12,353 nt of DNA from Candidatus Bathyarchaeia archaeon (GCA_050014495.1 JBEKDF010000056.1:1-12353); one strand, 5' to 3'; shown: positions 1 to 10,120, counted from the first letter of the stretch. Program-made: numbers and translations. The notes: a model not told the origin generated them from the letters alone.

Positions 1-467
1 AAACGATTGTATAGAAACTCAGTCTGATCCATAAAACGAGAATACCCCTGCTCCTCCCTTAACTCACTCAAAACTGGCTTAAGCTTCTCAAAATATTTTA
101 TGGTAACACCGGCGAACAGGAGGGCAACGTGGCGAATATCCAGTAAACCATCCCTTACAAGGAGGCCAAATCCCTCGAACCGCATCGCCATGATGTAGAG
201 GGCTTTAAGCATCTCCGGGTTTTCGACGAATTTCTTCTTGAATTCGGAGAAGTTCGTGTAATCTGTATTCACGACGTTGACCCACATCTCAACAAATTGA
301 GGTTCAGCGAGTTTATCGTAAACCGCCATCAACAGTTGTGCCTGCCTGGTCTCGAGGTTCGCCTTGAGGTTTCTCTGGTTCGTCCTCAGGGTGAGGACGT
401 AGTAGATAGCTGCTACCGTCACGCTTGCTGCTGTCACCAATACTCCAATTGTTTGAACGTCAACCAA
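1..467 (-). CDS. DUF4760-like membrane-anchored protein (partial, 3' end off window; missing from the ORF track)
   Basis: Manual translation from TTG at 467 is open to the window edge: MVDVQTIGVLVTAASVTVAAIYYVLTLRTNQRNLKANLETRQAQLLMAVYDKL...FEGFGLLVRDGLLD...YFEKLKPVLSELREEQG...TEFLYNR. It has an N-terminal TM helix plus the FEGxGxLVxxGxxD and ExLY motifs I associate with DUF4760. Paralog at 3560-3823. Confidence 0.85.
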   Translation of the reverse strand, partial: MVDVQTIGVLVTAASVTVAAIYYVLTLRTNQRNLKANLETRQAQLLMAVYDKLAEPQFVEMWVNVVNTDYTNFSEFKKKFVENPEMLKALYIMAMRFEGFGLLVRDGLLDIRHVALLFAGVTIKYFEKLKPVLSELREEQGYSRFMDQTEFLYNR

Positions 468-494
468 TACATCTCACTTGGTTAGAGTCAGATA

Positions 495-518
495 GAAGTG
501 AGGATAAGGCTATTGAGT
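495..518 (-). promoter_or_regulatory. Shared promoter block, copy 1 (minus strand ACTCAATAGCCTTATCCTCACTTC)
   Basis: Core TGAGGATAAGG at 499-509, 32 bp from the TTG start at 467. The same core recurs at 3855 and 4442 with matching spacing. Confidence 0.7.
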
Positions 519-735
519 GGACTCTTTTTGAGGGTTATTATCATAGACCGAATTGCATGGTGTAGACACGTGTTTTTTCCTTACAATTGATGCAACTCAT
601 TCAACACTTCTATTGTCGGGTTGCATGAGTCTTTACCTTTGCTTGGCTCTTCTTAAAGACATACGAGCGATATTGCTTTTCCGATGTAAACCATGATGAT
701 AGATATGGTTATACTCGCATTCACTAGCCCTTTAA

Positions 736-861
736 ATTGGCTGGGTCGCTAGCCTCGACTCATCCAGAAACCCCGAAACCGTGGCACCTGCAAAGTCACC
801 GGATACGACGGGCCAATGGATGAGGGTGGGCCACTCATTGAGTAACAGCGACCCAGCCACT
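736..861 (-). ncRNA. Candidate structured ncRNA of unknown family (~125 nt, paired 5'/3' ends, multibranch)
   Basis: Perfect 13-bp inverted repeat (IR) TGGCTGGGTCGCT (738-750) / AGCGACCCAGCCA (847-859). Nested perfect 8-bp IR CTCATCCA (759-766) / TGGATGAG (817-824). Inner CCCG/CGGG (772-775 / 809-812). Hairpin GTTACTC-AAT-GAGTGGC on the minus strand (846-830). A minus-strand TATA (TTTATATG, 891-884) places the transcription start at ~860. Confidence 0.55.
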
Positions 862-883
862 ATTCAAGGGGTCAGCATCTAGA

Positions 884-900
884 CATATAAAAAAATTCTC
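884..900 (-). promoter_or_regulatory. BRE/TATA-like promoter for the candidate ncRNA
   Basis: Minus strand reads GAGAATTTTTTTATATG. The TATA ends ~24 nt upstream of the first base of the terminal stem. Confidence 0.45.
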
Positions 901-1083
901 TCATGGGTTGAGAGAGACGAATGAAAAGTGAAAGTGAAGTCACCGTAATCAGGAAGTTCTCTCCATCTAGTGTACTGGGAATTGCTTCCCGAAGTTCCCT
1001 CCAAACCCACTAGATTAAATGGGTCGTAACTCCGAGAAAAAATACCGAATATGTGCAGTTTCATTCTATCGCCCGTCTTCTTG

Positions 1084-1098
1084 GCGCGCGCGAAAAGC
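1084..1098 (+). repeat. GCGCGCGCGAAAAGC junction motif, copy A
   Basis: 14/15 identical to 1697-1711. The first 13 nt are identical to the minus-strand copy at 3580-3568. Confidence 0.75.
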
Positions 1099-1139
1099 AT
1101 TCTCGGGTCCTCATAAAGTACTTACAAAAAAGAAAACCT

Positions 1140-1170
1140 CCTCAGTGATTAACATATTAATTGACTGAGG
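1140..1170. repeat. Imperfect inverted repeat, operator-like
   Basis: CCTCAGT (1140-1146) / ACTGAGG (1164-1170), with inner ATTAA (1148-1152) / TTAAT (1157-1161). Lies upstream of the TATA (TTTTATA at ~1202) of the 1242 gene. Confidence 0.55.
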
Positions 1171-1241
1171 TTACTGGCTGCCCGCACGCATATGTGTTAA
1201 GTTTTATACATGAAAGATAAAATTAAAATTGGCGAAAATAA

Positions 1242-1655
1242 TTGCCAGAGGAAAAAAAGGAACCAACTTTTAAAAAAATAGAAAAAGCTATGGTATATTT
1301 AGATTCTGAAGGAAAAGCAGTCTATCTTGGTTTGCCAACTAAAATAAAAGAGATGAAAGGAGGCAAAGCTGGGATATCATTAAAAATATCAGAAGGACTT
1401 GGAGGAGAGGTTGCGGGAAGTACATATTCAGAGGTAGATTATAAATGGACAAAAATTACAGATGAACCAGTTACGGAACAAGATTTAGTAGAATCTACGA
1501 AAGCGGTTGCTACCACTTCAGGGACTACAATAGTAAGTTCCGGATCTGCTGTGACAAATCCACCGATAGCATATGTTGATTATTGTTCGTCGTGTAAATC
1601 GATGATACTCAAGGGATCTAAATATTGTAACCAATGCGGAGCAAAAATTGAGTGA
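1242..1655 (+). CDS. Hypothetical protein with C-terminal zinc ribbon (CxxC...CxxC)
   Basis: 137-aa ORF with a Ser/Thr-rich linker followed by CSSC-x10-CNQCG. TATA-like TTTTATA at 1202-1208. AT-rich. Confidence 0.75.
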   Translation: MPEEKKEPTFKKIEKAMVYLDSEGKAVYLGLPTKIKEMKGGKAGISLKISEGLGGEVAGSTYSEVDYKWTKITDEPVTEQDLVESTKAVATTSGTTIVSSGSAVTNPPIAYVDYCSSCKSMILKGSKYCNQCGAKIE

Positions 1656-1696
1656 ATCTTTCTTAAGTATTCTACAAAATTTTATCTGTACCGAAT

Positions 1697-1711
1697 GCGC
1701 GCGCGAGAAGC
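1697..1711 (+). repeat. GCGCGCGCGAGAAGC junction motif, copy B
   Basis: Direct repeat of 1084-1098. Sits where AT-rich sequence gives way to visibly more GC-balanced sequence. Confidence 0.75.
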
Positions 1712-1874
1712 TGTTCGTGTACTTCAATAAGCGGTTCCCGGTTCCGAGTATTCGGCGTGGCAGTAAGATAGGGTTGAACACCATCATTAAGGAGGAGTCA
1801 TCAAGGATGTGGTTCTATCTGTTGGGAACTAAAACGGCTGAATGGGTTCCTAAAATTCCTAGTCCTTAACGATA

Positions 1875-2699
1875 TCAAGTTACATAATCTTCAGTTTTTT
1901 CAAATCCCTTTTTCCTAAATCTTTCTAATTCATACTCTTTCATTTTGTCCCTGGCTTCACTGTGGTCATAAAAAGCAACAGCAATCTCAACTGATGCAAA
2001 AAACAACACAAAATATGTTAAACTGAGATTCAAGTTGTTACTTTCCTGTTGAACCGCTACTTCTCCCGATGCAATTTGAATCGGCTCAAATAAAACATTC
2101 AATACGTATTCATTATCCGGAAACATAGCACTAAACTCAGACCACGAATCTGGAGCCCTAAGCAAATCGAATGTTGGAATTAAGTCTATAGTGACTGTAA
2201 GCTCAACTGGTCCTACCGCTTGAAATTGTACCCAATCACCGCCAGACCACATTTGAGAGAGTGTAATATTATTTGTGGTTCCTCTTTGCATTAGAGAAAA
2301 ATGGCTTTGAGTCGGAGGCTCCATTAAAGGAAAATTTTCGAAAGCGATTGGCTCGCATCTTAGAGCATTTTTAGCACTTACTTCGATGTTTATGATATTA
2401 TAAATAGGACTAGTTGTTTCTGCTACAAAAACTATGGATGTTGGGTTTCCTACACTGAGACTTGGCGAAGATACGTTACACCATATTGTTAATGTATTTG
2501 GTGTTCCCGCGTGAATGAAATTAGGAAGAGTATATTCCTGTGTCCCTATTTTCCACTGTAAAGAAGTTGACTTCTTGGAAGATAGTTTTGGAAGATAGGG
2601 ATTTGTAAGATAGCCTGCCGATAGGAAATAGCTTGCAGCTATTGTTGAAATTATGAATAATACAAAGATAGGAAACTTCCGAGTTTGTAACCAGTGCAT
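1875..2699 (-). CDS. Hypothetical membrane protein (N-terminal and C-terminal TM helices flanking a probable beta-rich extracellular domain)
   Basis: 274-aa ORF. Hydrophobic segments FPIFVLFIISTIAASYFLSAGYL and LSLTYFVLFFASVEIAVAFY, a charged C-terminal tail, and several NxS/T sequons. Confidence 0.8.
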   Translation of the reverse strand: MHWLQTRKFPIFVLFIISTIAASYFLSAGYLTNPYLPKLSSKKSTSLQWKIGTQEYTLPNFIHAGTPNTLTIWCNVSSPSLSVGNPTSIVFVAETTSPIYNIINIEVSAKNALRCEPIAFENFPLMEPPTQSHFSLMQRGTTNNITLSQMWSGGDWVQFQAVGPVELTVTIDLIPTFDLLRAPDSWSEFSAMFPDNEYVLNVLFEPIQIASGEVAVQQESNNLNLSLTYFVLFFASVEIAVAFYDHSEARDKMKEYELERFRKKGFEKTEDYVT

Positions 2700-2768
2700 T
2701 CAGCTATCTATAAAAATTACATCTAAACGATTCTTATAAAATACTCGTGACTTTTTTCGTTCCTGTTT

Positions 2769-2792
2769 TACGTGTATGCGTACGCACGTGTG
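2769..2792. repeat. 24-nt alternating purine/pyrimidine tract with a central palindrome
   Basis: TACGTGTATGCGTACGCACGTGTG, containing the palindrome TGCGTACGCA (2777-2786). Lies between two divergently transcribed genes. Confidence 0.7.
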
Positions 2793-2845
2793 ACTCGATG
2801 ATGCACTAAAAAGTTAAATTCAAAGTTATTAAAGACTCAATATAC

Positions 2846-3472
2846 ATGCCTTCGATTTTAAAGTTCATCCGAGGACCAAAAGGTATCGCAATAGGTCTAT
2901 TTCTCTTGGTGATAATATTTGTTTTCTTCTCTATAGATTCAATGTTAACAACAGTTGAACTTAATGGATGGGAATATTTCTATGGCAGCTTAAAAATTGG
3001 TGACATAATCGTAGGTTTAGGAACTGTGCTTTTAGCCGTTTTTACCGGACTGCTTGCCTTTACATCAAGTCGAGACGCAAGAAGAGAGCGAAGAGTTATG
3101 CGAATTAAAGAGCAGTTGGAAGGATTATATTCACCATTAATGGCATACATAAAATATTTTGACAACGTTGATGAACATTTTTCGTTATCCGAGCGTAAAA
3201 TCAATGCAGTAAGAAAAGCTGGTGAAACAAAGGTTTGGTTATTAATGCACGAGATAAGAAGTAAATATGAATTCTTAGCTGAGCCAGAATTAAAACGAAA
3301 GCTCAGAGAATACTATATTGAAAAGGATACACCGCCTTATGATATGGTAGGCAGCATTATTTATAATAAAGGACTTGAATGGAGAGAACGACTGGTTCAT
3401 ATCAAAACCTTAATAGAGAATGATTATCAAAAATTAACACAAGAATACGAAAAATTATATTCGATTCCATAA
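2846..3472 (+). CDS. Hypothetical membrane protein (two TM helices plus a helical soluble domain)
   Basis: 208-aa ORF. TM segments IAIGLFLLVIIFVFFSI and IIVGLGTVLLAVFTGLLAFT, followed by a basic patch and QLEGLYSPL. Confidence 0.8.
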   Translation: MPSILKFIRGPKGIAIGLFLLVIIFVFFSIDSMLTTVELNGWEYFYGSLKIGDIIVGLGTVLLAVFTGLLAFTSSRDARRERRVMRIKEQLEGLYSPLMAYIKYFDNVDEHFSLSERKINAVRKAGETKVWLLMHEIRSKYEFLAEPELKRKLREYYIEKDTPPYDMVGSIIYNKGLEWRERLVHIKTLIENDYQKLTQEYEKLYSIP

Positions 3473-3559
3473 AATCGCTTCTAAAAATAGACTTATTAGG
3501 TATTCTGTTAATAATATAATCATCATGATTAAAACTGCCTGATTGCGCTAGTCTTTTTC

Positions 3560-3823
3560 CTAGGTCATTTTCGCGCGCGCGTAAGCGTCGGGGTTGTTGT
3601 CGGACCTGTACTTCTTCTCGAAGTCGTCGTAGTCCTTCCACTCCATGTTCATCATCGTGACGTACTGTTTATACGCGTCTCCGTTCTGGAGGTAGTTTAC
3701 AGTTTGTAGTAGTAACTGTATGTGTCTGCTTCTTCTCGCCTCGCCGAGTGTACTGGCGTAGTAAATCGCCGCAACCGTCACGCTTGCTGTGACCAATACG
3801 CCAATCGTCTGCGCATCAACCAT
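3560..3823 (-). pseudogene. 3'-truncated DUF4760-like paralog
   Basis: N-terminus nearly identical to the 1-467 gene (MVDAQTIGVLVTA-SVTVAAIYY). It ends after 87 aa and lacks the FEGxGxLV half. The apparent homology stops at the GCGCGCGCG motif. Confidence 0.75.
3566..3580 (-). repeat. GCGCGCGCGAAAATG junction motif, copy C (inverted relative to A and B)
   Basis: Plus strand CATTTTCGCGCGCGC. Coincides with the truncation point of the DUF4760-like gene and with a composition shift. Confidence 0.75.
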
Positions 3824-3850
3824 TATTCATCACTGGAGAAGAATCGTGTG

Positions 3851-3870
3851 GAAGTGAGGATAAGGCTGTT
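3851..3870 (-). promoter_or_regulatory. Shared promoter block, copy 2
   Basis: GAAGTGAGGATAAGGCTGTT. Core at 3855-3865, 32 bp from the ATG at 3823. Confidence 0.7.
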
Positions 3871-4409
3871 TATTCGCAAACGCTAGAAAAATTCCATGCT
3901 TTGTATTGATTCAAATTTAAAGGGGTACCTAAGTATTTTTTAAAAGCTTCAAATTTAAACAGTTTTTCAGATGCGGGAAACTTCCGCATTCTATTTTCCT
4001 TGGAATGTTCTATCCCATTTCTACCAGGAGTTTCTTTCCAAGCCTTAAAACCCAATTCAACTTGTTCTTTAACAACTTTACTGGGAACAATGTAGTACTG
4101 GGGATTGTTAACTCCATTTTTTAGATTGACAAATACAAAAAAGAAGTCTGGTTTAGGAAGTATTTTTTCCTCGGGAGGACAAAACCATTCATCTACACTC
4201 CAAGATGTTTTTACTTGAAGCTCAATTTTTTCTCCCTTTGGTGTCTTAATAATTATGTCGACACCAGATGTGTTTCTAATAGTCGGTAACGCGATGTAAC
4301 CTCTACGGCTTAGTTCGCCACAGACAAAATGGACACCTGATGAACCTACCAGAGAATTATCAGGTTTGGGGAGAGGCATGAGCGACGGAGGCAGAGCTAA
4401 GTCAGCCAA
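3870..4409 (-). CDS. PD-(D/E)XK superfamily endonuclease (restriction-endonuclease-like)
   Basis: Motifs GxxGxHFVCGELSRRGY, GVDIII and ELQVKT (D...QxK variant), plus FFFVFV and QYYIVPS. Alternative start ATG at 4379. Confidence 0.8.
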   Translation of the reverse strand: MADLALPPSLMPLPKPDNSLVGSSGVHFVCGELSRRGYIALPTIRNTSGVDIIIKTPKGEKIELQVKTSWSVDEWFCPPEEKILPKPDFFFVFVNLKNGVNNPQYYIVPSKVVKEQVELGFKAWKETPGRNGIEHSKENRMRKFPASEKLFKFEAFKKYLGTPLNLNQYKAWNFSSVCE

Positions 4410-4415
4410 ATTATA

Positions 4416-4461
4416 ACACCTGAATTAGCAACAGGTGTAAATGAGGATAAGGTTATTGAGT
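4416..4461 (-). promoter_or_regulatory. Shared promoter block, copy 3, with a downstream 7-bp inverted repeat
   Basis: TAAATGAGGATAAGGTTATTGAGT (4438-4461), core 33 bp from the TTG at 4409. IR ACACCTG (4416-4422) / CAGGTGT (4432-4438) lies between the promoter and the start. Confidence 0.7.
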
Positions 4462-4540
4462 CAACATTCACTCGACCGCCTCCTTTGCTGGTGTGCCTAG
4501 GTTTTAAGAGGCTTGGTGAGCTGCCAATTGACGAGACTCC

Positions 4541-4822
4541 TTGATTCCTGAAGCTGAAGTTGTAGAGTTCGTAAATGAGATGAGCAGAACCACGGGTGTT
4601 CTCGTCTCATTCGGAGTGAATGCTTACTATGTGGACCCTGAGCCCGGAACAGCTTTCGTGGTCTTCATCGATCCAGCGTATCTGGATGGGGTAGCGGTGT
4701 CTAAGATGGAGGCATACGCTGAGAGGAAGGGGCTCAATGTGGTTGAGGAGTGGAGTGACTGGGGTAGATTCCTCAAGATCATGAAGTTGAGGACTGAGTT
4801 TGTATCTGCATTCTCACCCTGA
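4541..4822 (+). CDS. Hypothetical protein
   Basis: 93-aa ORF with protein-like composition. TATA-like TTTTAAG at ~4502. Confidence 0.7.
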   Translation: MIPEAEVVEFVNEMSRTTGVLVSFGVNAYYVDPEPGTAFVVFIDPAYLDGVAVSKMEAYAERKGLNVVEEWSDWGRFLKIMKLRTEFVSAFSP

Positions 4823-4902
4823 GCCTCATCCATTGGGGCGGTGATATTGGCGCATAAAGATCGGGGGCGGAGCGGGGGTGAGGCTATGAGGCCCCACGAC
4901 AT

Positions 4903-5199
4903 CTAGCGTGCCATAATTGCCCGGAGAGCATGTGCGGTTCTTTTAATGCACGTTTCATCAAGTTCCTTCAACTTCGAATGAGTTCCCCAACTTGTTCTAT
5001 TCCAGAACCTTTCATGAACATAGTATGCTACACTTGTGTAAATATTACTTCCAAGCATAAACCAAAACGCAGTTTGATATTGTCCGGTGAGCAGATAAAT
5101 AAAGGTAAAATCTAATATTATAATCAAAGCTCGATAAGTAATTGTTTTCACTAACGACCTTGTCCAAGGTTCTTTGACCTTACGATCCTCACCTACCAT
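4903..5199 (-). CDS. DUF2061 domain small membrane protein
   Basis: E..TRSLVKTITYR...YLLTG...YYVHERFWNRTSWG matches the DUF2061 signature as I recall it. ATG at 5199 has a GAGTGAG ribosome-binding site. The ORF can extend to GTG at 5265. Confidence 0.85.
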   Translation of the reverse strand: MVGEDRKVKEPWTRSLVKTITYRALIIILDFTFIYLLTGQYQTAFWFMLGSNIYTSVAYYVHERFWNRTSWGTHSKLKELDETCIKRTAHALRAIMAR

Positions 5200-5329
5200 C
5201 TTTAACTCACTCAAAAAATGTTCTGCACCCGTGCAGATAAGTGCACAGACTTTATTATGTTTCACCTCACCTCGCGTAAAATCGGATCTACTTAAACTAG
5301 TGGACGTTCTCCGCTATCCTGATTGAAAG

Positions 5330-5593
5330 ATGAACGAAGTTGAGGAAGCATCTAGGAAGGTTTGCGAAGATTCCTTGTGGAGGTTTGAGGGAGACGCGAT
5401 GAAGGCGTTAACAAACCCGGAGGACCACCAGGCACTTGTGGACTTGATTAACGAGTGGAAGCGACTAGGTGAACACACCTTACGGAAGCTCTCCTTGAAT
5501 GAACCCTGGAACATGCCGCTATACTTCGCTCTCTCCGCTGCGGTGCTTAATCGAAGGGAGATCAACGAACTCAAGAAGAATCTTAAAATTTAG
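5330..5593 (+). CDS. Small helical hypothetical protein, possibly related to PolB2-associated small proteins (arCOG07300-like)
   Basis: 87-aa ORF. The pattern ALxxPEDHQALVDL...P...LSAAVLNRREINELK resembles that family from memory. The family call is weak. Confidence 0.65.
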   Translation: MNEVEEASRKVCEDSLWRFEGDAMKALTNPEDHQALVDLINEWKRLGEHTLRKLSLNEPWNMPLYFALSAAVLNRREINELKKNLKI

Positions 5594-5684
5594 TAAGTGT
5601 GCGTTGTCATAAAAAATCCTTATTAGAGTAGTTTGACCAATAAGCGTGAGAAACTTTAAATTTAAAAGTAACTCATTAAATTTT

Positions 5685-6473
5685 ATGGTTTATAGAACAC
5701 TTCAACATACCAAGGATGCAACATATGCTGTATGCCCACCTCATCCTATTCCTGCTTGGAAAGGCTTTCCTTACCCCGCAGGGACCGGTTTTTTCATAAG
5801 TCCTGATGGATATTTTATAACAGCTAGACATGTAGTTGAGATGTTAGAACTAGTAAATAGCAGACTTGTTCCCAAACTAGACGCGGGACTGAAACCAACT
5901 CTAGTCCCAGCTACTTCTATTTGGTTACAAAAACCAGAGGGGGAGTTGATCCAGAATCTTACTCTTGTGCACGATTGGCCCAAATTTGACATGGTTTTAT
6001 TAAAAGCAGATTTTGATAAGGTTAAAGGTCAGAGAAGATTCGAAAAAAAGACACATTTCGACTACTTAGAAGTTGAATTAGAAATTATCCCTGAAGGGTA
6101 TGATGTGTATTCCTTCGGATATCCCTTATCAGATCCTCAAGTACAAGGGATTGGCGGACCCGTAATGATAGGTATAGTTAACTGGTTTCCACGAGCAACA
6201 TCTGCAATAATATCTTCACATCATAATGTTATTGGCATGATTTATGGTGCTGGACCTTCCCCCTATTATGTCATTGACAAAGCATTAAATCCTGGAAACA
6301 GTGGGGGACCAATAGTTGTTAATGAAAATGGTCGGGTTATCTCGGTGTGCACTGCAATTAGTACATTCCAATTAACTGGACAAGCACAAGTAAAACTCCC
6401 CACAAATTATACTGTTACAACTGCGATTAGAAATGTTTACAAAGAATTAAAGGATTTAGGGATTGTTGGATAA
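5685..6473 (+). CDS. Trypsin-like (S1/Trypsin_2) serine protease, probably cytoplasmic
   Basis: AGTGFFISPDGYFITARHVV (His), FDMVLLK (Asp) and NPGNSGGP (Ser). No signal peptide or PDZ domain seen. ATG at 5685 lies ~20-25 nt after TTTAAA boxes, suggesting a leaderless start; the ORF track starts at 5646. Confidence 0.9.
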   Translation: MVYRTLQHTKDATYAVCPPHPIPAWKGFPYPAGTGFFISPDGYFITARHVVEMLELVNSRLVPKLDAGLKPTLVPATSIWLQKPEGELIQNLTLVHDWPKFDMVLLKADFDKVKGQRRFEKKTHFDYLEVELEIIPEGYDVYSFGYPLSDPQVQGIGGPVMIGIVNWFPRATSAIISSHHNVIGMIYGAGPSPYYVIDKALNPGNSGGPIVVNENGRVISVCTAISTFQLTGQAQVKLPTNYTVTTAIRNVYKELKDLGIVG

Positions 6474-6487
6474 TACTTTTTGCAAAG

Positions 6488-6805
6488 TCAGAAGAATAAG
6501 TTAATTATATCAAAAATAGCCATCGATGCTACCGCTATGGCCAGCACAATGAATTCTACCCGACCTTCACCTTTCTTCGTTATCATAGCGAGGCTCGCTG
6601 GGATTGGAACCGTGACGAGCATCCCAGCCAAGTTGAATAGGACGTGACCACGACCTTCGACCACTACACTTGGTGAAAGCCCTATTAGCTGAACGTTGAG
6701 GATTGTCAATCCCTGTGCATAGGCGACCGCCAAGTGACCAAGCTCATGTAACGGGATGAGCAGAACGAATAGGGCGAAGTAGCACAACCACCACATTCTG
6801 GACAT
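6488..6805 (-). CDS. Small membrane protein with an HExxH motif (M50/zincin-like metallopeptidase)
   Basis: LIPLHELGHLAVAYAQG lies in a TM context, followed by LAGMLV and a C-terminal AIFD. Third gene of the integrase operon. Confidence 0.7.
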   Translation of the reverse strand: MSRMWWLCYFALFVLLIPLHELGHLAVAYAQGLTILNVQLIGLSPSVVVEGRGHVLFNLAGMLVTVPIPASLAMITKKGEGRVEFIVLAIAVASMAIFDIINLFF

Positions 6806-6806
6806 T

Positions 6807-7043
6807 TCATTTCACCGCTATGATAAATTCTAGACCGCACTTAGGGCACTTGGCCCTTCTTGTGGAGGCATGATTCAGGAGGTTGGTGTTAATACGCCAC
6901 ATGGGTTGGAGCCCATCCCACTTGATTGAAGAGAAAAAATCCAACGTGTTTTCCACATCTATCTCCCGGCCCATATGTTTGTTGGGGCATAGGAGCTTGT
7001 AGACGCCTGAGTTGAGCTTAATCTCTAAGATCGGGACGCTCAT
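6807..7043 (-). CDS. Small zinc-finger protein (CPNKH...CPKC)
   Basis: 78 aa. Its start overlaps the integrase stop (ATGA), and its stop is 1 nt from the next start. Confidence 0.7.
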   Translation of the reverse strand: MSVPILEIKLNSGVYKLLCPNKHMGREIDVENTLDFFSSIKWDGLQPMWRINTNLLNHASTRRAKCPKCGLEFIIAVK

Positions 7044-8341
7044 GCTCTCACCGCCTGATCTACGAGTAGTTCGCCGAGCCTCTTCTGACGGGCCTCATAA
7101 TCAGATTGGTTGAAGTTTTTCGGAACCAGGACTGGCGTACCCTCTGCAGCAGGCAGCTCATCAGTATGTTGAATCTGAGCCCTTAGCTCAGAGACTTCGG
7201 TCATCAGAGATTTCACGGCGTTAATCCATTCGGCTTGCTCCTGCTGTGTCTTGGCGATGAAGGTATCGTGTAGCTGATTCATCTCAACCTCAAGTTTAGC
7301 GTTCCTCAGCTCGTAAGCCCTAATCCGAATGTCGATCTCGTTGTTCTGCTTCTCCGCTTTCTCTCTAAGATCGATGATGGTCTTTGAGCCTGCGAAGATA
7401 CTCAGGTGTGGTTCAGCTTCGAGGTATCCCTTCTCAAGGAGTTCCTCAGCCTGATCAAACCGAGCGTAGATCGCCATCAGCCCGCTGGTGTGGCCCATCA
7501 AAGCTTCCGGTATGTCGGGATTCGTCCACTCGCCACGAGTCCTGAAGTATTTTCGGAGGTTGTGGGGCCTAATGGTCATCCGCCTTGTGGCGGAATCGAT
7601 CTTGAGTAGTTTCGCCCTCTCCAGAGCTTCACGCCAGAGGAAGAGATATGTGTCTGATCCGAAGGGGAAGATTCGGTCGTCCTCAGGGTCGAAGGGCATA
7701 CCACATCTAGCGGAAGCCTGTCGGAGGTAGTCAAGGCGAAATCCCAACCATTCCCCGAGCAGGCTCTTAGCCTCATCGGAGAACAGGACGAATCTTTTCC
7801 TCTTAGTCTTCGTTGTCTGATATCTAAGATTGAGCCTCGGTGGCTTACGGTCAAGCTCCATGTCTCCGAGTCTAAGTTGTAGGGCCTCCCCAACCCGCAT
7901 CCCAGATGAGGCGAGTACCAGCGTCAGGGTCTTGGCGCCGATTGGCATGAACTCAATGATCCTAGCCAGTTCGGCTGAGGTCGGTACGTGTTCTTCGCTT
8001 ATTGCCTCGTCAGCCTTGCCCAGGAGGTTCCTAGTGAAGTTACGGCTGAAGGTGATCTCGTTATCTTGGAGGTACCGTAGGATAGCAGAGAATCTGGCCA
8101 TCGTCGTCTTCGGTGCATCGTCTTTGGTCTGGTCTCGGAATCTCAGAAGGTCTCCCCGGAAGTCCCGAGGAGTTGAGACGTATTGTAGACTGAATTCGTC
8201 ATATCGTTTCTCGTCATCGCTTTTCTTGAGTTCTGGGTAAAGGGTCCGAAGGTAGCACCGGATGATGCTCTTGTAGAGGTTATGTGTGCTCTTCATCTGG
8301 TATTGGGCCAAGAATTGGCTGAGGTTGTACTTCTCGGTCAT
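7040..8341 (-). CDS. Tyrosine recombinase/integrase with a C-terminal coiled-coil extension
   Basis: Catalytic set present: SSGMRVGE (R), TTKTKR (K), HNLRKYF (HxxR), LMGH (H) and AIYAR (Y). A ~120-aa helical tail follows. Confidence 0.95.
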   Translation of the reverse strand: MTEKYNLSQFLAQYQMKSTHNLYKSIIRCYLRTLYPELKKSDDEKRYDEFSLQYVSTPRDFRGDLLRFRDQTKDDAPKTTMARFSAILRYLQDNEITFSRNFTRNLLGKADEAISEEHVPTSAELARIIEFMPIGAKTLTLVLASSGMRVGEALQLRLGDMELDRKPPRLNLRYQTTKTKRKRFVLFSDEAKSLLGEWLGFRLDYLRQASARCGMPFDPEDDRIFPFGSDTYLFLWREALERAKLLKIDSATRRMTIRPHNLRKYFRTRGEWTNPDIPEALMGHTSGLMAIYARFDQAEELLEKGYLEAEPHLSIFAGSKTIIDLREKAEKQNNEIDIRIRAYELRNAKLEVEMNQLHDTFIAKTQQEQAEWINAVKSLMTEVSELRAQIQHTDELPAAEGTPVLVPKNFNQSDYEARQKRLGELLVDQAVRA

Positions 8342-9772: not shown

Positions 9773-10120
9773 TTGGTCTTGAGGCCCGACGAAGAGATCG
9801 GGGAGCTCAGGAAGGAGCTTCAGAGCTTCCGCACTGAGACGCAACAGAGGCTCGAATTGATATAGGGTGAGGTCACGAAGCGGGTCAGCCTGAACTACAA
9901 CAGGGCGATCGTCGATTACCTAAAGCGCGCGGTCAACTCACAATGCTCCAGGAACCGATTGTCCCAGTCTGGAAATAATATGATAGAAATGCTCGATCCT
10001 GTAGCCATGGAACAGGGTGTTCTCATCCCCGTCGTCCATAGGGTGCGACTGCAGGTCATGCTCAGCATCTTTAAGGGGGGAGAACACGTCGCTGACTTCA
10101 CAGCTGCAACCCACAGTTGA
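9773..10120 (+). pseudogene. Decayed ArsR-like winged-helix regulator
   Basis: One frame from TTG at 9773: MVLRPDEEIGELRKELQSFRTETQQRLELI*(TAG 9863-9865)GEVTKRVSLNYNRAIVDYLKR...LDPVAMEQGVLIPVVHRVRLQVMLSIFKGGEHVADFTAATHS*. The 'LxPxxHxxRLxxxxxxxxG' segment resembles an ArsR start, but the frame stops before the recognition helix. Confidence 0.6.

Follow-up and report, generated by a model that had tools for sequence, protein, structure and literature searches.

Template-free repair of double-strand breaks and the fixing of nonhomologous foreign genes are open questions in most archaea. Integrons have reportedly been described from archaea in a preprint. PriSL of Saccharolobus anneals ends via 2 to 4 G-C pairs, adds untemplated bases, and, when breaks are repaired, preferentially inserts C next to G/C (PMC12019639). 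IS1272 replaces inverted-repeat (palindromic) targets without target duplication (PMC5678879), and the abundance of HIP palindromes correlates with matching methylases (PMC4390886). Here, we analyzed short runs of alternating G and C (GC runs) in a 12,353-nucleotide stretch of DNA from a Candidatus Bathyarchaeia archaeon (GCA_050014495.1). The stretch (the window) makes up the entire contig C56 in genome G000 (92 contigs, 3.11 Mb), and 71 genomes of its family (the family genomes) were compared for the trait and for gene presence. An earlier annotation made from the sequence alone (the sequence-only reading) had taken three copies of a G/C-rich motif in the window as sites of cassette recombination. 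Our results indicate that the copies belong to a genome-wide class of GC runs, which are probably patches, mostly nonparental, written by a host end-joining route where cut, deleted, or unrelated DNA is joined.

The G000 genome contains 459 alternating G/C runs of at least 8 letters, and their length is capped, with only 12 exceeding 10 letters. The counts by length are 186 (7 letters), 192 (8), 144 (9), 111 (10), 5 (11), 4 (12), 1 (13), 1 (16), and 1 (18); the five other letter pairs show a smooth length decay with no drop after 10. The most over-represented 8-mer in G000 is GCGCGCGC, with 1024 occurrences versus 60.5 expected, and on both strands together T-GCGCGCGC-A was found 92 times versus 22 times for A-GCGCGCGC-T. 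There are also 46 CGCGCGCG and 78 GCGCGCGCGC runs. With open reading frames (ORFs) from our own caller, and an edge defined as lying within 30 bases of an ORF end, 415 of the 459 runs are located outside ORFs or at their edges, versus 1081 of 5000 random places (22%). Successive runs enclose from 0 to 6 or more genes and occur in all four orientations with no orientation rule. What recurs is the run of alternating G and C; the A(A/G)AA tail, which had been counted as part of the motif, is not conserved, since ARAA follows only 13 of the 222 runs ending in G. The rarity claimed for the motif (about 0.004 copies by chance) did not survive the census because G000 is full of such runs: the 9-mer GCGCGCGCG occurs 420 times and the 13-mer GCGCGCGCGARAA 13 times, and these 13 copies have nothing further in common.

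The 120 bases on each side of each run (918 sides from 459 runs) were searched against G000, and a side was regarded as testable when, over the 20 bases next to the run, a paralogue matched 17 or more. The likeness breaks at the run in all 86 testable sides, versus 30 of 113 control sides. These 86 comprise 24 ends of insertion sequence (IS) elements and 62 non-IS sides, and the break was seen in 62 of the 62 latter. The same was found in relative G047 (2 of 2 run sides versus 7 of 42 controls). The runs therefore lie at junctions, and their letters are mostly not of parental origin. Among the 62 non-IS sides, the parent supplies no run letter in 15, one in 28, two in 8, three in 1, four in 4, five in 2, six in 1, seven in 1, and ten in 2; the 6-letter case is a variant IS end, and both 10-letter cases are one duplicated pair. 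The total run length does not increase with the letters supplied, staying at 8 to 10 with two parental letters as with none. Since the parents lack the run, it is a product of joining and not a pre-existing crossover site. Paralogues were available on both sides of 37 runs of at least 7 letters, 30 of which join different parents; the rest are four deletions (167, 317, 455, and 1255 bases), one same-length replacement of 7 bases, and two mutual duplicates, and no clean insertion was found among the 37. Some joins are recent, with parents 98 to 100% alike, and IS copies are themselves interrupted by runs (C33:31598 and C11:71519). The pattern is that of filler-type microhomology end joining, with at least 1 letter shared in 47 of the 62 sides, no more than 2 in 51, and deletions of 167 to 1255 bases. 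For about 5 to 7 of the 62 sides, a GC tract is also present at the corresponding edge in the paralogue, and old runs appear to be sometimes re-used as break or crossover points. The palindromy of the flanks of the G000 runs is at chance level, giving no signal of snap-back hairpins, and an origin from such hairpins was rejected.

In the end-joining route favored here, every enzymatic step of which we infer, a broken end would be trimmed, and a polymerase would add G and C in alternation to its 3′ end, continuing from a terminal G or C if present. Because such tails are self-complementary, any two tailed ends could pair with each other. Pairing would be stable at about 8 to 10 bp, which would set the length cap, and gap filling and then ligation would follow. 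Such patches would serve as a universal glue by which deletions are sealed and foreign fragments, for instance a zinc ribbon (Zn-ribbon) gene in the window, are captured, and elements of an IS5/IS1182-like family would likely take the patches as later insertion targets. A further step, offered tentatively, is that several Bathyarchaeia lineages might possess a dedicated, hitherto undescribed end-joining system, in which the polymerase writes a fixed-length self-complementary GC linker on any end and one transposon family has specialized on the scars. If so, breaks would be glued and foreign genes captured without homology or recombination sites. The activity of an enzyme writing self-pairing GC tails would be new among polymerases, and such an enzyme might serve as a universal tool for joining DNA. 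The regular junction signature makes template-free joining in archaea testable, since every run marks both the time and the place of an earlier join. No published account of such runs in these archaea was found in a search of mainly openly accessible papers.

Positions 1 to 8341 of the window form an island with a tyrosine recombinase at its end, and core genes lie beyond; the sequencing runs that contain window DNA are from peat and wetland metagenomes, and the protein cluster of L21e includes a member assigned to Candidatus Bathyarchaeota. The features concerned are as follows.

3..467, minus strand: DUF4760 gene (PF15956, E value of 3e-7, over the cut-off), extending past the window edge and paralogous to the gene cut at run C
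1084..1092, no strand assigned: GC run A, 9 letters, GCGCGCGCG, likely a patch at a junction, located 5′ of the Zn-ribbon gene
1242..1655, plus strand: AT-rich gene of 137 amino acids with a C-terminal zinc ribbon, between A and B, likely captured cargo
1697..1705, no strand assigned: GC run B, 9 letters, a likely junction patch 3′ of the Zn-ribbon stop codon
1875..2699, minus strand: gene of 274 amino acids, cargo between B and C, without a Pfam family
2846..3472, plus strand: gene of 208 amino acids, cargo between B and C, without a Pfam family
3560..3823, minus strand: DUF4760-like 5′ fragment of 87 amino acids, cut at run C
3572..3581, no strand assigned: GC run C, the 10-letter palindrome CGCGCGCGCG, a junction truncating the DUF4760-like gene
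7040..8341, minus strand: tyrosine recombinase (PF00589) next to the L21e cluster, at the edge of the island

All three copies were confirmed, with GCGCGCGCGARAA found exactly at 1084-1096 (+), 1697-1709 (+), and 3580-3568 (-), and the 14 of 15 identities between A and B were reproduced. When up to 2 mismatches are allowed, GCGCGCGCGARAA has 6 matches in the window versus a shuffle mean of 0.27. As had been stated, the window holds no further copy: it contains no other alternating G/C run of at least 8 letters, and two 7-mers lie elsewhere, at 9925 and 10587. A and B do bracket the Zn-ribbon ORF (1242-1655), A ending 149 bases before it and B beginning 41 bases after it, and C is indeed the site where the DUF4760-like gene is cut. 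The likeness to the paralogues on C52 and C84 stops within C, at 3578, after which they proceed as an intact DUF4760-like gene, and about 4 of the 10 letters of run C are parent supplied. The 87-amino-acid fragment has no Pfam match; at the DNA level it resembles the DUF4760 gene at 3-467 and its paralogues. The copies are not assembly errors, since contigs of sequencing run X2 span A and B (415-2201) and C (3263-3637) with zero differences. In addition, loci L123 (containing A, B, and C) and L124 (containing A) are 100% identical to the window.

The Zn-ribbon gene matches Pfam family Zn_Ribbon_1 with an E value of 2e-4, which is below the cut-off. In locus L125, from another metagenome, a 47% homologue likewise lies between runs, which are spaced differently from it and lack ARAA; this is consistent with two independent captures that were sealed in the same way. 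No paralogue of the 274- or 208-amino-acid gene was found in G000. A tRNA scan of the window found none, and promoter and terminator scans gave only chance-level results. A repeated upstream element, AGTGAGGATAAGGCTATTGAG, is located at 482-518, 3838-3874, and 4425-4461, preceding DUF4760-like and other island genes, and GGATAAGG is among the most over-represented 8-mers of G000. Window positions 4513-4812 and 4892-5329 are skipped by contigs of other sequencing runs, which carry 26 to 34 different letters in between and likely represent paralogous islands.

The runs are patchily distributed among the relatives, with 0 to 429 matches to GCGCGCGCG per genome in the 71 family genomes. A drop after 10 letters was observed in five relatives (9 to 45 matches to the 11-mer versus 160 to 429 to the 9-mer); it is softer in G021, in stretches chosen for having runs. 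The drop recurs in G047, where the run lengths are 8 letters in 41, 9 in 30, 10 in 7, and 11 in 1, and no run of 7 was found in 445 kb (about 28% of the genome) of G055. The trait is clustered on a PriS tree of 50 of the 71 genomes, built by a quick method, and needs 8 changes on it. High counts, raw and without G+C correction, also occur in families f17, f26, and f27 in a sample of 151 class genomes. Two sets of sister genomes, run-rich G007 versus run-free G001 and G010, and G057 and G082 versus G060 and G072, may point to the gene of the writer.

A shared origin of the runs with transposition, and a role of transposition, are possible. The IS5/IS1182-like family comprises elements of 1266 to 1285 bases with a 280-amino-acid DDE transposase, which scores below all NCBIfam cut-offs, plus miniature inverted-repeat transposable elements (MITEs). 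Of 72 IS/MITE end matches, 61 adjoin 4 to 10 alternating G/C letters, always G first, and 26 of the 61 adjoin at least 8; IS ends adjoin GC runs in relatives as well. These ends suggest that the runs could be tips or target duplications of this family, left after element loss or deletion of a neighbor, and the transposase, found in 35 of the 71 family genomes, is missing from run-free G001, G010, and genus g23. IS1272 offers a precedent in that it uses inverted-repeat targets without duplicating them (PMC5678879). However, we consider this origin unlikely. A duplication footprint requires the target in the parent, and the parent supplies at least 4 letters in only 10 of the 62 sides, while a fixed tip on random targets would seldom reach 8 letters, as 26 of the 61 IS flanks do. 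A fixed GCGCGCGC scar cannot yield the 46 CGCGCGCG and 78 GCGCGCGCGC runs when no more than 5 runs have 11 letters, and neither the lack of clean insertions among the 37 two-sided cases nor the cutting of IS copies by runs agrees with such scars. Moreover, the transposase was sought without success in the run-rich genomes G013, G057, G015, G003, G082, and single-contig G047 (assemblies incomplete), has only a distant partial match in single-contig, run-rich G021, and is intact in run-poor G067, G084, and G045; because multi-copy elements drop out of fragmented assemblies, such absences carry little weight outside G015, G021, and G047. Two IS/MITE end families always adjoin GC runs, at L021:644-1909 (G000 C61:6043-7308) and at contig ends. 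In 11 intact elements the flanks fit a 7- to 10-letter run only if the duplication is 4 letters (seven elements) or 8 (or 6) letters (four elements). Separately, six Cas1 matches in G000 (on C80, C18, C46, C6, C79, and C24), several of them broken beside GC runs or IS ends, are possibly casposon remnants.

Alternating G/C is a classic Z-DNA former, and the strong over-representation of the G/C palindrome, whose inner variants are mostly transitions, could reflect a pre-existing motif, selected or built by mutation (a HIP1-like palindrome, Z-DNA, or a protein-binding site), that attracts breaks. This is improbable, since the paralogues lack the run and diverge there, so that it was absent before the join. 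Furthermore, same-length replacement accounts for just 1 of the 7 collinear cases, and a PF00145 cytosine methylase was found in 0 of 5 genomes, in a search for this methylase class alone. Still more improbable is cassette insertion, excision, or inversion at GCGCGCGCGARAA by the tyrosine recombinase of the island, as the sequence-only reading had suggested in likening the system to integrons or shufflons. Its proposal of a junction or crossover signal holds insofar as the runs mark junctions; cassette shuffling or inversion at a 13-base site is unsupported. In its favor, the ARAA tail shared by the window copies and the A/B downstream likeness each rank in the top 0.4% of random comparisons, one gene is bracketed by A and B and its L125 homologue is bracketed too, and an older run is re-used in about 5 to 7 of 62 sides. 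Nevertheless, the 459 runs have no conserved arms for binding beyond the run and their flank palindromy is not beyond chance, the parents lack the site, no IntI- or Rci-type enzyme tied to the runs was found, and there is no one-gene periodicity. Six integrase homologues have only 17 of the 459 runs within 10 kb of them. Close relatives of the window integrase were found in 5 of the 71 family genomes and in none of the five run-richest relatives tested (G011, G013, G016, G021, and G057). The enzyme gives weak XerA/XerC matches, below the XerA cut-off, and no match to an integron-integrase model. Among the joints listed, none shows excision or inversion at A, B, or C in contigs of four sequencing runs, and none is listed at the 15 GC runs of C51:4300-13400 in four more, eight in all; X4 contigs span these 15 without difference. 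This search covered contigs only, which drop rare variants, and so is no proof of absence. The reading as recombination sites is thus largely refuted, and the tyrosine recombinase is a bystander unlinked to the runs.

Candidates for the enzyme that would write the patch were scored across the 71 family genomes or, where stated, in five chosen genomes. Ku is present in run-free G001, G010, and G081 and missing from all five g5 and all five g21 genomes, most of them run-rich; it is missing from single-contig G021 (92% complete, 182 matches) and present in G001 (0 matches). The IS transposase, two PriS-like paralogues (C20 and C53), a PolB2-like polymerase, a second Mre11-like nuclease, and the window integrase do not track the runs either. 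In the five chosen genomes, PolX (5/5), the cytosine methylase (0/5), Cas1 (1/5), RusA (4/5), and two conserved unknown proteins (each 5/5) likewise do not track them, and no reverse transcriptase (PF00078) was found in G000. A gene-content screen for proteins shared by G000 and G047 but not encoded in the 445 kb of G055, which is incomplete, left 465 soluble proteins, and a Pfam search of 125 hand-picked ones gave no clear writer. PriSL is the most plausible candidate, although naming it is a rather doubtful guess, made because Saccharolobus PriSL anneals ends via G-C pairs, adds untemplated bases, and inserts C. Several loci of related content were noted in G000. A complete-looking cluster of Ku, LigD polymerase, and ligase-phosphoesterase genes is located at C3:64206-67463, with Ku in 29 of the 71 family genomes. 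The patchy PriS-like paralogues lie at C20:26047-27366 and C53:7058-7864, and C53-type pieces are cut at GC runs (C13:37385 and C24:4356). A second operon of NurA-like, HerA-like, Mre11-like, and short Rad50-like genes (428, 539, 414, and 686 amino acids), named by sequence reading, is located at C2:92203-98407 and at L230:3853-7166, and its Mre11-like gene occurs in 32 of the 71 family genomes; another Mre11/Rad50-like pair lies at C9:6681-10600.

Several points weigh against patch writing by end joining. No writer enzyme was found among the candidates examined; PriS is present in 69 of the 71 family genomes, run-rich or not, with no residue separating the groups, and the insertions of Saccharolobus PriSL are 1 to 2 bases, not 8 to 10 (PMC12019639). 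All 61 well-formed IS ends adjoin a GC tract. Only 86 of the 918 sides could be tested, the parents are paralogues, mostly 75 to 95% alike, rather than true ancestors, and no pre-junction allele was seen in reads at the runs examined (window and C51). In the window, no paralogue in G000 reaches either edge of A or B. A parent search with the ORF left of A (879-1100) gave weak, mixed matches only, the frame right of B gave no real match and one spurious one, and a 3.3-kb DNA search of the family retrieved only DUF4760 and promoter pieces and no parents of A or B. Because these parents were not found, the status of A and B as junctions is taken from that of their class. The tail and downstream likeness of A and B is a residual, unexplained oddity. 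The further similarity that had been claimed for their flanks does exist, with about 18 of 27 letters alike between 1093-1122 and 1706-1735. Over 30 bases downstream, only 0.44% of random flank pairs rank as high, and the similarity is probably due to chance. Three successive runs with 3 of 4 tail letters in common occur in one of 87 triples, namely in this window, and in 0.39% of random triples; as one case among 87 is near the 0.34 expected, the shared tail is probably chance as well.

Compared with known systems, the locus resembles integrons and shufflons in that, close to a tyrosine recombinase, small foreign genes gather between short repeats, but the runs lack attC-like arms, one-gene periodicity, an IntI-type match, and any inversion seen, and they are spread genome-wide. 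Ku/LigD nonhomologous end joining also joins ends with low homology and can add bases, and its operon is present in G000; however, the distribution of Ku does not follow the runs, and to our knowledge no alternating patch is known for that pathway. Like HIP1 of cyanobacteria (PMC4390886), the runs are short G/C-rich palindromes with hundreds of copies and a patchy presence in relatives. Unlike HIP1, they avoid genes, vary in length and phase, and mark junctions, and no PF00145 methylase was found in the five genomes searched. As in IS1272 (PMC5678879) and the IS5/IS1182 family, element ends here adjoin palindromic GC runs, whereas, in contrast to IS footprints, most runs have no adjoining element, interrupt elements, and occur where the transposase was not found. 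PriSL end joining (PMC12019639) is likewise archaeal, with ends paired via a few G-C pairs, untemplated bases, and G/C-biased insertions; its known products are indels of 1 to 2 bases, whereas here a stereotyped alternating patch of 8 to 10 letters joins unrelated DNA.

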